A stretch of DNA of 64,000 bases from Trypanosoma brucei (taxonomy: Eukaryota). The translations under genes were made by a program, and so were the position numbers. Shown one piece after another: positions 59,020-64,000 of the stretch. The stretch covers positions 1-64,000 of the forward strand of contig CP000069.1 in assembly GCA_000002445.1 (NCBI GenBank). Reading direction: 5' to 3'. The stretch's first letter is position 1, and each line of letters begins with the position of its first letter. A model generated the notes under the pieces. That model had not been told where the DNA came from. It saw only the letters and a list, made by a program, of their open reading frames with translations, and did not search any database.

Positions 59020-62000
59020 CTATTACACACAATAATGTGCACTTCGTTCCATTATACGCAATAACGTGCATTTATACGCAATAATGTGCATTTATACGCA
59101 GTAATGTGCATTTATACGCAATAATGTGCATTTATACGCAATAATGTGCAATTTGTGCAATTATACGCAATAATGTGAAATTTGTTTAATTATATGCAAT
59201 AACGTGCAATTTGTGCAATTATACGCAATAACGTGCAATTTGTTTAATTATATGCAATAATGTGCAATAATGTGCAATTTGTTTAATTATACGCAATAAT
59301 GTGCAATTTGTGCAATTATACGCAATAATGTGCACTTTCTTTAATTATATGCAATAACGTGCAATTTGTGCAATTATACGCAATAACGTGCAATTTGTTT
59401 AATTATATGCAATAATGTGCACTTTGTGCCATTATACGCAATAATGTGCATTTATACGCAATAATGTGCACTTTGTGCAATTATACGCAATAACGTGCAA
59501 TTTGTTTAATTATACGCAATAATGTGCATTTATACGCAATAATGCGCACTTTGTTTAATTATATGCAATAATGTGCACTTTGTGCCATTATACGCAATAA
59601 TGTGCATTTATACGCAATAATGTGCAATTTGTGCAATTATACGCAATAACGTGCAATTTGTTTAATTATATGCAATAATGTGCAATTTGTGCAATTATAC
59701 GCAATAATGTGCATTTATACGCAATAATGTGCAATTTGTGCAATTATACGCAATAACGTGCAATTTGTTTAATTATATGCAATAATGTGCAATTTGTGCC
59801 ATTATACGCAATAATGTGCATTTATACGCAATAATGTGCAATTTGTGCCATTATACGCAATAATGCGCACTTTGTTTAATTATATGCAATAATGTGCAAT
59901 TTGTGCAATTATACGCAATAATGTGCATTTATACGCAATAATGTGCACTTTGTGCAATTATACGCAATAATGTGCATTTATACGCAATAATGTGCACTTT
60001 GTGCCATTATACGCAATAATGTGCATTTATACGCAATAATGCGCACTTTGTTTAATTATATGCAATAATGTGCAATTTGTGCAATTATGCGCAATAACGT
60101 GCAATTTGTGCAATTATACGCAATAACGTGCATTTATACGCAATAATGTGCACTTTGTGCCATTATACGCAATAATGTGCATTTATACGCAATAATGCGC
60201 ACTTTGTTTAATTATACGCAATAATGTGCATTTATACGCAATTATGTGCATTTATACGCAATAATGTGCACTTTGTTTAATTATATGCAATAACGTGCAA
60301 TTTGTGCAATTATACGCAATAATGTGCACTTTGTTTAATTATACGCAATAATGTGCATTTATACGCAATAATGTGCACTTTGTTTAATTATACGCAATTA
60401 TGTGCATTTATACGCAATAATGTGCATTTATACGCAATAATGCGCACTTTGTTTAATTATATGCAATAACGTGCAATTTGTGCAATTATACGCAATAACG
60501 TGCAATTTGTTTAATTATACGCAATAACGTGCAATTTGTGCAATTATACGCAATAACGTGCAATTTGTGCAATTATACGCAATAACGTGCAATTTGTTTA
60601 ATTATATGCAATAATGTGCAATTTGTGCAATTATACGCAATAATGTGCATTTATACGCAATAATGTGCAATTTGTGCAATTATACGCAATAACGTGCAAT
60701 TTGTTTAATTATATGCAATAATGTGCAATTTGTGCCATTATACGCAATAATGTGCATTTATACGCAATAATGTGCAATTTGTGCCATTATACGCAATAAT
60801 GCGCACTTTGTTTAATTATATGCAATAATGTGCAATTTGTGCAATTATACGCAATAATGTGCATTTATACGCAATAATGTGCACTTTGTGCAATTATACG
60901 CAATAATGTGCATTTATACGCAATAATGTGCACTTTGTGCCATTATACGCAATAATGTGCATTTATACGCAATAATGCGCACTTTGTTTAATTATATGCA
61001 ATAATGTGCAATTTGTGCAATTATGCGCAATAACGTGCAATTTGTGCCATTATACGCAATAATGTGCATTTATACGCAATAATGCGCACTTTGTTTAATT
61101 ATACGCAATAATGTGCATTTATACGCAATAATGTGCACTTTGTTTAATTATATGCAATAACGTGCAATTTGTGCAATTATACGCAATAATGTGCACTTTG
61201 TTTAATTATACGCAATAATGTGCATTTATACGCAATAATGTGCACTTTGTTTAATTATACGCAATTATGTGCATTTATACGCAATAATGTGCATTTATAC
61301 GCAATAATGCGCACTTTGTTTAATTATATGCAATAACGTGCAATTTGTGCAATTATACGCAATAACGTGCAATTTGTTTAATTATACGCAATAACGTGCA
61401 ATTTGTGCAATTATACGCAATAACGTGCAATTTGTGCAATTATACGCAATAACGTGCAATTTGTTTAATTATATGCAATAATGTGCACTTTGTGCCATTA
61501 TACGCAATAATGTGCATTTATACGCAATAATGTGCACTTTGTGCAATTATACGCAATAACGTGCAATTTGTTTAATTATACGCAATAATGTGCAATTATA
61601 CGCAATAACGTGCAATTTGTTTAATTATACGCAATAACGTGCAATTTGTGCAATTATACGCAATAACGTGCAAATTGTGCAATTATACGCAATAACGTGC
61701 AATTTGTGCAATTATACGCAATAACGTGCAATTTGTTTAATTATACGCAATAATGTGCATTTATACGCAATAATGTGCAATTTGTGCAATTATACGCAAT
61801 AATGTGCAATTTGTTTAATTATATGCAATAACGTGCAATTTGTGCAATTATACGCAATAACGTGCAATTTGTTTAATTATATGCAATAATGTGCAATAAT
61901 GTGCAATTTGTTTAATTATACGCAATAATGTGCAATTTGTGCAATTATACGCAATAACGTGCAATTTGTTTAATTATATGCAATAATGTGCAATAATGTG

Positions 62001-62065
62001 CAATTTGTTTAATTATACGCAATAATGTGCACTTTGTTTAATTATACGCAATAATGTTCATTTTG
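59020..62065. repeat. AT-rich satellite array: tandem 20-bp units (TATACGCAATAATGTGCATT) and 29-bp units (TATACGCAATAA[T/C]GTGCAATTTGT[GC/TT][A/C]AT), mostly ordered 20-29-29-29 (about 107 bp higher-order period)
   Basis: The periodicity can be read directly from the sequence. The 29-mer is the 20-mer plus an internal 9-bp duplication (TGTGCAATT TGTGCAATT). There are no unique spacers, so this is not a CRISPR array. Confidence 0.9.
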
Positions 62066-62330
62066 TGTATGAAAATACAAAACAAGAAAAATAAGCGGGG
62101 CAACGTTGTAATGGAAGCTGTATCTTGCTGTCGAAGACTTAGAAATATATTTACCATAATGCGATGATGGCAACTCGTTTGGAGAGGGAAAAACAGTACG
62201 TAAGCTGGTTTCATTATAAAATTTATGAAGTTGATCGGGGGATGAAGTATTAGAAGGTGCTTAGTTTTCTCCGCTCCCTTATCGATCGATATTTAGGAGT
62301 GAAGTCGCATTTTAATATGCTGCGGGTGGT

Positions 62331-62390
62331 NNNNNNNNNNNNNNNNNNNNNNNNNNNNNNNNNNNNNNNNNNNNNNNNNNNNNNNNNNNN
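62331..62390. other. Assembly gap (run of N)
   Basis: About 50-60 consecutive n characters. The 265 bp before it (62066..62330) are unique sequence with no satellite periodicity. Confidence 0.95.
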
Positions 62391-64000
62391 TTGTGCAATT
62401 ATACGCAATAATGTGCATTTATACGCAATAATGTGCACTTTGTGCCATTATACGCAATAATGTGCATTTATACGCAATAATGCGCACTTTGTTTAATTAT
62501 ATGCAATAATGTGCAATTTGTGCAATTATGCGCAATAACGTGCAATTTGTGCAATTATACGCAATAACGTGCATTTATACGCAATAATGTGCACTTTGTG
62601 CCATTATACGCAATAATGTGCATTTATACGCAATAATGCGCACTTTGTTTAATTATACGCAATAATGTGCATTTATACGCAATAATGCGCACTTTGTTTA
62701 ATTATATGCAATAACGTGCAATTTGTTTAATTATATGCAATAATGTGCGCTTTGTTTAATTATATGCAATAATGTGCACTTTGTTTAATTATACGCAATA
62801 ATGTGCACTTTGTTTAATTATATGCAATAATGTGCGCTTTGTTTAATTATATGCAATAATGTGCACTTTGTTTAATTATACGCAATAATGTGCATTTATA
62901 CGCAATAATGTGCAATTTGTGCAATTATACGCAATAACGTGCAATTTGTTTAATTATACGCAATTATGTGCATTTATACGCAATAATGTGCATTTATACG
63001 CAATAATGTGCACTTTGTGCCATTATACGCAATAATGTGCACTTTGTTTAATTATATGCAATAACGTGCAATTTGTGCAATTATACGCAATAACGTGCAT
63101 TTATACGCAATAATGTGCATTTATACGCAATAATGTGCACTTTGTTTAATTATATGCAATAACGTGCAATTTGTGCAATTATACGCAATAATGTGCACTT
63201 TGTTTAATTATACGCAATAATGTGCATTTATACGCAATAATGTGCAATTTGTTTAATTATACGCAATAATGTGCAATTTGTTTAATTATACGCAATAATG
63301 TGCAATTTGTTTAATTATACGCAATAATGTGCATTTATACGCAATAATGCGCACTTTGTTTAATTATATGCAATAACGTGCAATTTGTGCATTTATACGC
63401 AATAATGTGCAATTTGTTTAATTATACGCAATAATGTGCAATTTGTTTAATTATACGCAATAATGTGCATTTTGTTTAATTATACGTAATAATGTGCAAT
63501 TTGTTTGATTATGCGCAATAACGTGCAATTTGTTTAATTATACGCAATAATGTGCAATTTGTGCAATTATACGCAATAATGTGCATTTATACGCAATAAT
63601 GTGCACTTTGTTTGATTATGCGCAATTATGTGCATTTATACGCAATAATGTGCACTTTGTTTGATTATGCGCAATAATGTGCATTTTGTTTAATTATACG
63701 TAATAATGTGCAATTTGTTTGATTATGCGCAATAACGTGCAATTTGTTTAATTATGCGCAATAATGTGCAATTTGTGCAATTATGCGCAATTATGTGCAT
63801 TTATACTCAATAATGTGCACTTTGTTTGATTATGCGCAATTATGTGCATTTATACGCAATAATGTGCACTTTGTTTGATTATGCGCAATAACGTGCAATT
63901 TGTGCAATTATACGCAATAACGTGCAATTTGTGCAATTATACGCAATAACGTGCAATTTGTGCAATTATACGCAATAATGTGCAATTATACGCAATAACG
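62391..64000. repeat. Continuation of the 20/29-bp AT-rich satellite to the window edge, with more divergent variants (TTTGATTATGCGC) toward the end
   Basis: Same units as 59020..62065. Unit variants change along the array: CGC and ATGC variants are in the early part, and GATTATGCGC variants appear after about 63470. Confidence 0.9.

Follow-up and report, generated by a model that had tools for sequence, protein, structure and literature searches.

The window analysed here, a 64,000-bp stretch of DNA, is made up of bases 1-64000 of chromosome 6 of Trypanosoma brucei brucei TREU927, as indicated by exact protein matches, a PacI site and probe primers, whose coordinates agree. In fact, four proteins encoded in the window are identical to XP_845146-XP_845149 of T. 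b. brucei TREU927, the single PacI site lies at 18825 (published cut at 18830), and the primers of the Tb12 probe were found at 35563 and 36891-36917, Tb12 being published as chromosome 6 35563-36918. The PacI site and the primer positions therefore show that window coordinates are chromosome coordinates. The end of the window is occupied by a tandem array of short units. Its first unit, at 59029, is degenerate (TRF places the start at 59066), and the array is still running at the window end, 64000 (Table 1). The ingi retrotransposon that abuts the array has a poly(A) tail and an 11-bp target-site duplication, and 64 bp separate its 5' end from the first array unit. A RIME-like element, at about 51404-51908, interrupts the truncated LSU rRNA gene.

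Table 1. Features of the array and of its flank in the chromosome 6 window.
Feature	Position	Strand	Remarks
Truncated LSU rRNA gene	50350..53591	-	Beside the centromeric domain
ingi retrotransposon, full-length	53706..58964	-	Abuts the array; RT, endonuclease, RNase H and zinc-finger ORF fragments
Block A, left edge of the centromeric AT-rich array	59029..62057	+	113 units of 20, 29 or 39 bp; published start 59066
Divergent left edge	59029..59350	+	Degenerate first unit, four 20-mers in a run, four singleton unit types
Sole good local 107-bp (20-29-29-29) tract	59550..59947	+	291 bp, 97.25% identity at lag 107
~0.9-kb higher-order block, copy 1	59608..60730	+	33-36 units
~0.9-kb higher-order block, copy 2	60544..61597	+	Length differs from copy 1 by 69 bp
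Non-repeat sequence	62058..62330		273 bp, beside the gap
Assembly gap	62331..62390		60 N, the published "gap of unknown size"
Block B of the array	62391..64000	+	59 full units, runs off the window; published end 64433
Right-edge variant zone	63457..63884	+	Six units with GTTTGATTATGC, plus GTAAT, TCAAT and GCATTTTG variants

The 20- and 29-bp units described in an earlier note on this sequence were confirmed: the array consists of 121 units of 29 bp, 48 units of 20 bp and, besides, three 39-bp units; all of them are on the + strand and none is found elsewhere in the window. When up to two mismatches were allowed, the 20-mer gave 49 matches as compared to 0 expected. The view that the 29-mer is the 20-mer plus one 9-bp sub-repeat was also confirmed, GCAATAATGTGCAATTTGTGCAATTATAC being the 20-mer with an extra GTGCAATTT/TGTGCAATT. 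The product of an exact deletion, GCAATAATGTGCAATTATAC, was counted only twice, and in the common 20-mer, GCATTTATAC, one more base is changed (A>T). All units are built from a 9-10-bp sub-repeat, GCAAT-WWW-RY, which is present in two copies in the 20-mer, in three in the 29-mer and in four in the 39-mer. For this reason, G/C and AA/TT hold one coherent phase, and a single 9.75-bp periodicity extends across the array. That the unit lengths are multiples of this sub-repeat, kept in one phase, is a descriptive gain. The monomers are about 89% identical to each other, and the variation in their length may derive from slippage in the sub-repeat register.

The earlier note had also suggested that short palindromes in the array might favour secondary structure. 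Two of those quoted, TTGCGCAA and ATTGCAAT, are missing from the array. When five array segments were folded as single strands, none did better than its shuffles: four were worse (z-scores from +1.5 to +3.5) and one gave +0.3. With values from +0.3 to +3.5, mostly worse than shuffles, hairpin or cruciform potential was rejected.

As for the order of the units, 20-29-29-29 had been proposed as the main one, giving a higher-order period of about 107 bp. The gaps between successive 20-mers (n = 49) were of 49 bp in about 15 cases, of 107 bp in 13, of 20 bp in 8-9 and of 78 bp in 4, so that 107 bp (13/49) is one common spacing beside 49 bp (~15/49), and 20-29-29-29 does not prevail as the order of units. 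Base identity was highest at lag 29 (0.72), followed by lag 107 (0.65) and by lags 49 and 78 (both 0.62), and it fell to 0.52 at lag 214 and to 0.48 at lag 321. Exact unit types were repeated at a lag of four units in 12% of cases only, which is within the shuffle range. Among the periods that a repeat finder had been expected to return (20, 29 and about 107), 29 and 107 were reported by TRF and 20 was not; the periods found were 10, 29, 49, 68 and 107. Periods 49 and 107 obtained about equal scores (2819 and 2862, respectively), each with 73% matches and 10-12% indels. The 107-bp arrangement is found as a local module, with at most about 3.7 consecutive copies in its one good tract. A higher-order repeat would consist of multi-monomer blocks that are far more similar than adjacent monomers and recur along the array, and the 107-bp period does not do so. 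The "107-bp higher-order repeat" is accordingly corrected to a local module, which is not the organising period. The idea that GTGC-type and GTTT-type 29-mers alternate strictly, as in a 58-bp dimer, was rejected as well, since they show a tendency only (g to t 22/42, t to g 24/59); the identity at lag 58 is 0.60, below that at lag 29.

The long-range structure probably consists of blocks of about 0.9 kb (0.87-0.94 kb, 33-36 monomers), which are 98.7-99.2% identical to each other as compared to about 89% between monomers. The matches are between 59608-60216 and 60544-61152 (98.7%) and between 60244-60730 and 61111-61597 (99.2%). This arrangement may resemble that of primate alpha-satellite DNA, with diverged monomers (~89%) contained in far more similar multi-monomer blocks (~99%), a homogeneous interior between divergent edges, and the array as the site of kinetochore assembly. 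However, only about 2.2 copies of the block and a 293-bp fragment are assembled here, and the monomer is of 20 or 29 bp instead of 171 bp. Moreover, kinetoplastids are without CENP-A, and a CENP-B box is not expected.

The earlier note had taken 59020-64000 as one array, overlooking that it is broken by 273 bp of unique sequence and by 60 N. The unique segment was considered as possible vector or E. coli contamination, a candidate that was rejected, no match being found. Published PacI and SfiI restriction mapping gave a length of about 55 kb for the chromosome 6 array, as compared to 5.4 kb in the assembly. What is assembled corresponds to the two array edges only, of about 3.0 and 2.0 kb (1.6 kb of the second inside the window), which amount to some 10% of the array as it really is; the gap stands for roughly 50 kb of missing sequence. 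The first 293 bp of Block B are 100% identical to 59950-60242.

Assembly could have distorted the order of units over more than one Sanger read, as well as the 0.9-kb blocks and the pattern at the edges. On this rival explanation, the long-range features (the ~0.9-kb blocks, the segment that is 100% identical on the two sides of the gap, the 273-bp piece and the apparent variant gradient) would not show the true unit order but would be due in part to the collapse of a ~55-kb satellite in a Sanger-era assembly, the identity of the array being unaffected. The small portion assembled, the position of the gap within the array, the identical 293 bp at the opening of Block B and the length of the duplicated blocks, which exceeds one Sanger read, are all consistent with such a collapse. 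However, the ~0.9-kb copies differ by point changes and by a 69-bp indel, as real paralogous blocks do, and unique flanks anchor both edges. We consider an artefactual origin rather unlikely, and the blocks probably genuine.

The single-base variants quoted in the earlier note exist: AATAATG was counted 123 times, AATAACG 47, TATACGC 130, TATATGC 30, GTTTAATT 59, GTGCCATT 14 and TTTGATTATGCGC 6, the last being confined to 63504-63874. The variants depend on the neighbouring units. A different variant had been seen to take over after about 63470 and, in fact, TTTGATTATGC is found only from 63486 onward. A homogeneous interior with divergent edges was observed too, a rare base being present in 16/37 edge units as compared to 10/135 interior units, with edge limits that were set after the data were seen. 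With regard to the proposed variant gradient along the array, rare variants do cluster at both edges, whereas the gradient as such had been read across the gap and its missing sequence. This excess of rare variants at both assembled edges is unlike what is reported for fully sequenced T. brucei arrays, in which no centre-to-edge divergence gradient was seen, a statement made where the 147-bp class is treated (Obado et al., 2007, PMC1868937). Unequal exchange or gene conversion, with fewer events at the edges, may have given rise both to the blocks and to the uniform interior.

The array was at first considered to be the "50-bp repeat" found upstream of VSG bloodstream expression sites, for which a boundary role is proposed, because 20 + 29 bp makes 49 bp and because RHS and ingi elements are located upstream. 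Indeed, 49 bp is the commonest 20-mer spacing and also a TRF period, RHS genes are reported upstream of 50-bp repeats, and the region is near the subtelomere. Both are near-subtelomeric tandem arrays, rich in AT and not transcribed, that have RHS and ingi elements in their vicinity, and the chromosome 6 array has its 49-bp module. This reading was dropped since the centromere papers give exact coordinates: the chromosome 6 centromeric array is published at Tb927_06_v4 59066..64433 (Obado et al., 2007, PMC1868937; Echeverry et al., 2012, PMC3292466), and its start is the TRF start. The published descriptors all fit as well. They comprise a unit length of about 30 bp, an AT content of 71%, a sequence gap given as of unknown size, and an ingi or DIRE element and rRNA genes as neighbours (Obado et al., 2007, PMC1868937); in the window, the 29-mer is dominant (121/172 units), AT content is 69.8%, 60 N lie inside the array, and the ingi element and the LSU rRNA fragment adjoin it. 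In addition, the 64-kb window has no ESAG7, ESAG6 or expression-site content, and the published map places an SfiI site and the chromosome core downstream of the array. In a separate search, ESAG7, its sequence agreeing with PDB 6SOY_B, gave homologues. The 50-bp repeats have another locus and role, the chromosome 6 array being without an adjoining expression site. With the coordinates matching the published centromere, and on a comparison made by locus and descriptors, the expression-site repeat was rejected as extremely improbable.

The repeat at the window end is almost certainly the known centromere-associated AT-rich satellite of chromosome 6 of T. brucei TREU927, of which only the edges are assembled. 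The array itself is already published as a landmark of the chromosome 6 centromere, and therefore no new element is added by its finding. The ~30-bp class arrays of chromosomes 1 and 6 (PMC1868937; PMC3292466) include this same locus, with no difference in kind, and for its repeat an identity of 76% to the chromosome 1 repeat consensus would be expected; the unit is published only as "about 30 bp", whereas a finer organisation is described here, with a mixture of 20-, 29- and 39-bp units, a 9-10-bp sub-repeat, ~0.9-kb blocks and divergent edges. These architectural details alone would not surprise a specialist; they could guide the analysis of long-read centromere assemblies and tests of KKT2/KKT3 recognition. 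The likeness to centromeric satellites suggested in the earlier note holds better than that note could know, because this very array has been mapped as the centromeric repeat of chromosome 6. Exact scans of bacterial and archaeal genomes and of metagenomes with the array pattern gave 0 matches.

Another T. brucei repeat with the same role and context is CIR147, which consists of 147-bp repeats on chromosomes 4, 5, 8, 9, 10 and 11. No 147-bp period was detected in the array by TRF, and identity at lag 147 (0.356 for Block A, 0.353 for Block B) was close to the 0.29 expected from composition. The two repeats are therefore set apart by period. CIR147 yields siRNAs, and other centromeric repeats are reported not to.

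Topoisomerase II cleavage after etoposide treatment maps to the chromosome 6 array domain (Obado et al., 2007, PMC1868937), and, on chromosomes 1, 2 and 4-8, the AT-rich arrays are where the ChIP-seq peaks of KKT2 and KKT3 fall. This indicates that the array is a platform for the assembly of an unconventional, CENP-A-free kinetochore, a function taken entirely from published mapping. T. brucei centromeres are also very early-firing replication origins. It might be argued that the repeat is a passive by-product, and that centromere identity is epigenetic or comes from the flanking retroelement and rRNA context, in which case satellite sequence, 9.75-bp phasing and unit grammar would have no sequence-specific role. 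Consistently, repeat classes vary by chromosome (~30, 120 and 147 bp; Obado et al., 2007, PMC1868937), T. cruzi centromeres are without repeats (PMC1868937), and on chromosome 3 KKT enrichment is beside the repeats and not on them. On the other hand, KKT2/KKT3 peaks lie on AT-rich arrays in 7/8 mapped chromosomes, and the arrays are limited to one site per chromosome (PMC1868937). A passive role is considered less probable than not.

The functional unit of the T. brucei centromere might be the 9-10-bp GCAAT-WWW-RY sub-repeat and not the "30-bp" or "147-bp" repeat, a speculative proposal that we consider improbable as it stands. The sub-repeat would keep AT-rich minor-groove sites in 9.75-bp phase over kilobases, whatever the mixture of 20- and 29-bp units, and KKT2, KKT3 or topoisomerase II would recognise the DNA that is phased in this way and probably curved. 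If true, centromere identity would follow a rule of sequence or shape in a eukaryote that has no CENP-A. The ~30-, 120- and 147-bp classes of other chromosomes would then represent different ways of packing this one sub-repeat at a higher order, and the 48- and 30-bp sub-repeats of CIR147 would match the 20 + 29-bp and the 29-bp units, respectively.

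Direct reading of positions 58400-64000 and Tandem Repeats Finder (TRF) gave a tandem array on the + strand, whose first, degenerate unit lies at 59029 (TRF start, 59066) and which is still running at the window end, 64000. The array is interrupted: the final recognisable unit of its first part (block A, 59029..62057) begins at 62048 and is followed by a non-repeat segment and an assembly gap (see table), after which the second part (block B, 62391..64000) begins. By anchored parsing, block A has 113 units and block B has 59; over both blocks, 29-bp units number 121, 20-bp units 48 and 39-bp units three. 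Over the whole window, the 20-mer with up to two mismatches gave 49 matches, all between 59058 and 63991 and on the + strand only, as compared to 0 in shuffled sequences. The non-repeat segment contains no ORF and has no plasmid or E. coli match; it is either a true interruption of the array or a contig end joined wrongly.

Features adjoining or interrupting the array
Feature	Coordinates	Strand	Remarks
LSU rRNA gene, truncated	50350-53591	-	Rfam RF02543, model positions 1460-3399 only
RIME-like element inside LSU rRNA gene	~51404-51908	+	both ends match both ends of the neighbouring ingi
ingi, full length (~5.26 kb)	53706-58964	-	adjoins array
Unique segment, 273 bp	62058-62330		between block A and gap; single occurrence within window
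Assembly gap, 60 N	62331-62390		repeat restarts at 62391

Four proteins encoded in the window match T. brucei brucei TREU927 entries exactly (XP_845146-XP_845149), and the Pfam context is of T. brucei type and near-subtelomeric: ingi, an LRR protein, and two each of RHS proteins and GRESAG4-type adenylate cyclases. Window and chromosome 6 coordinates coincide at three independent landmarks; among them, the sole PacI site of the window lies at 18825 (published cut, 18830), and the primers of the chromosome 6 probe Tb12 (published 35563-36918) were found at 35563 and 36891-36917. On each of chromosomes 1-8, topoisomerase-II cleavage induced by etoposide has been mapped to a single domain, where an AT-rich repeat array is accompanied by an ingi or DIRE element (Obado et al., 2007; PMC1868937). 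For chromosome 6, the same work lists adjoining rRNA genes, a gap of unknown size, 71% AT and a unit of ~30 bp; all these descriptors, ingi included, are found here, with the 29-mer as dominant unit, an AT content of 69.8% and the 60-N gap inside the array. PacI and SfiI mapping sized the chromosome 6 array, noted by the same authors to be near the subtelomere, at ~55 kb, as compared to 5.4 kb assembled (Echeverry et al., 2012; PMC3292466), so that the Sanger-era assembly covers ~10% of it. KKT2 and KKT3 are enriched, by ChIP-seq, on the AT-rich arrays of chromosomes 1, 2 and 4-8 (Akiyoshi and Gull, 2014; PMC3978658). Coordinates, descriptors and the published Topo-II and KKT mapping therefore identify the array as the centromeric satellite already known from chromosome 6, with a function taken from published work, and the likeness to centromeric satellites drawn in the earlier note was right. 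The 50-bp repeat found upstream of VSG bloodstream expression sites, our first hypothesis, would fit a 49-bp sum of 20 and 29 and the RHS and ingi elements upstream, but was rejected because the coordinates match those of the published centromere array. Differently from the centromeric CIR147 class, the chromosome 6 array has no 147-bp periodicity; centromeric repeats other than CIR147 are reported to be without siRNAs. T. brucei centromeres are also described in the literature as very early replication origins. The element itself being already known, what is new here is descriptive detail only.

The 29-mer reads GCAATAATGT-GCAATTTGT-GCAATTATAC and the 20-mer GCAATAATGT-GCATTTATAC, the difference being one 9-bp sub-repeat, so that unit parsing bears out the proposal that the 29-mer equals the 20-mer plus 9 bp. 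There are two occurrences of the exact deletion form, GCAATAATGTGCAATTATAC, from which the common 20-mer differs by one fixed A>T change. More simply, the units are two, three or four copies of a 9-10-bp sub-repeat. TRF also lists period 10, and identity at lag 10 is 0.52, as compared to ~0.29 expected from composition. G/C and AA/TT show one sharp 9.75-bp periodicity over the entire 3-kb block (power 84, other periods at most 2.4), because units are made up of complete sub-repeats only. The 39-bp units (59254, 61883 and 61980) each carry one additional GCAATAATGT sub-repeat and follow a GCAATAACG...GTTTAATTATAT unit (3/3); together they form the near-identical stretches 59112-59328 and 61741-61957, at opposite ends of block A.

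A higher-order period of 107 bp, as previously proposed, turned out to be overstated. The spacing from one 20-mer to the next is 49 bp (~15 cases), 107 bp (13), 20 bp (8-9), 78 bp (4) or longer, and period 107 is best kept at 59550-59947. Compared with shuffles, the word 20-29-29-29-20 is in excess (13 vs. 4.9), this count being inflated by the large ~0.9-kb duplication. Identity decays from 0.72 at lag 29 to 0.65, 0.52 and 0.48 at lags 107, 214 and 321, and the exact unit type recurs at a lag of four units in 12% of cases, inside the shuffle range. In unit space, autocorrelation exceeds the shuffle range at lags of 36 and 33 units only. Long stretches match closely: 59608-60216 with 60544-61152 (98.7%), 60244-60730 with 61111-61597 (99.2%), 59112-59328 with 61741-61957 (99.5%) and the 293 bp directly following the gap with 59950-60242 (100%). 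Mean monomer identity, in contrast, is 89%, and two neighbouring 29-mers have the same sequence in only 7 of 77 pairs. The array therefore appears to be organised at a higher order, the period being ~0.87-0.94 kb, but only ~2.2 copies are assembled. The blocks exceeding read length, the unique 273-bp piece and the 293-bp identity between the two sides of the gap may come from assembly choices.

Variants are non-random with respect to the neighbouring unit. AATAATG is found in 47/48 units that come after a 20-mer; GCACTTT is present in 30/40 29-mers following a 20-mer vs. 16/83 following a 29-mer; a 20-mer comes next after 11/14 GTGCC units; TATAT ends go with a GTTTA middle in 29/30, the remaining one coming after the related CTTTA. 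These counts support a claim weaker than the suggested cycling with the higher-order period, namely that variants depend on position relative to 20-mers. The variant gradient held in substance: GTTTGATTATGC units are confined to 63486-63884, and 26 of 36 rare-base sites fall within 37 edge units, at both assembled edges (units carrying a rare base, Fisher P ~1e-6, with edge limits picked after data inspection). The pattern is edge divergence and not a measured gradient, because ~50 kb of unassembled array separates blocks A and B. This edge excess differs from fully sequenced T. brucei arrays, for which a remark beside the 147-bp class states no gradient (PMC1868937).

The idea of palindromes favouring secondary structure found no support. 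The quoted TTGCGCAA and ATTGCAAT do not occur in the array, where TGCA is found 234 times, GTGCAC 32 and TGCGCA 24, and none of five segments folded as single-stranded DNA exceeded dinucleotide shuffles in stability (z-scores between +0.3 and +3.5).

Since others have located Topo-II decatenation activity and KKT2/KKT3 enrichment at this array, it is most likely, according to the literature, the kinetochore assembly platform of chromosome 6. The 20-, 29- and 39-bp units would arise by slippage in a 9-10-bp register, and unequal exchange or gene conversion, less frequent at the edges, would make and homogenise the ~0.9-kb blocks. AT-rich segments phased at 9.75 bp could possibly curve the DNA or present minor-groove sites at regular steps.

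On the array's left side, the end regions of the ingi (53694-53718 and 58953-58975) show a poly(T) run on the + strand (53706-53718) and near-identical 11-bp flanks, ACAAAGAACTA and ACAAAGAAATA, that look like a target-site duplication. Minus the insertion, ~170 bp would separate the rRNA fragment and the start of the repeats. At a distance of ~12 kb from the array lies a large inverted duplication, with arms of ~5.8 kb (26534-32324 and 41376-47167), each comprising a GRESAG4-type adenylate cyclase gene (XP_845148, XP_845149), and a ~9-kb spacer; the arms consist of four collinear pieces, 98-99% complementary. Tschudi et al. (2012) list seven long inverted repeats that are sources of siRNA, and this duplication is absent from their list. 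One N at 6888, an unresolved assembly base, falls within the ORF of the 1438-aa LRR protein (3409-7725), and TRF detected two long microsatellites, perfect or nearly so, (TG)64 at 704-831 (100%) and (ATT)39 at 8167-8284 (90%).
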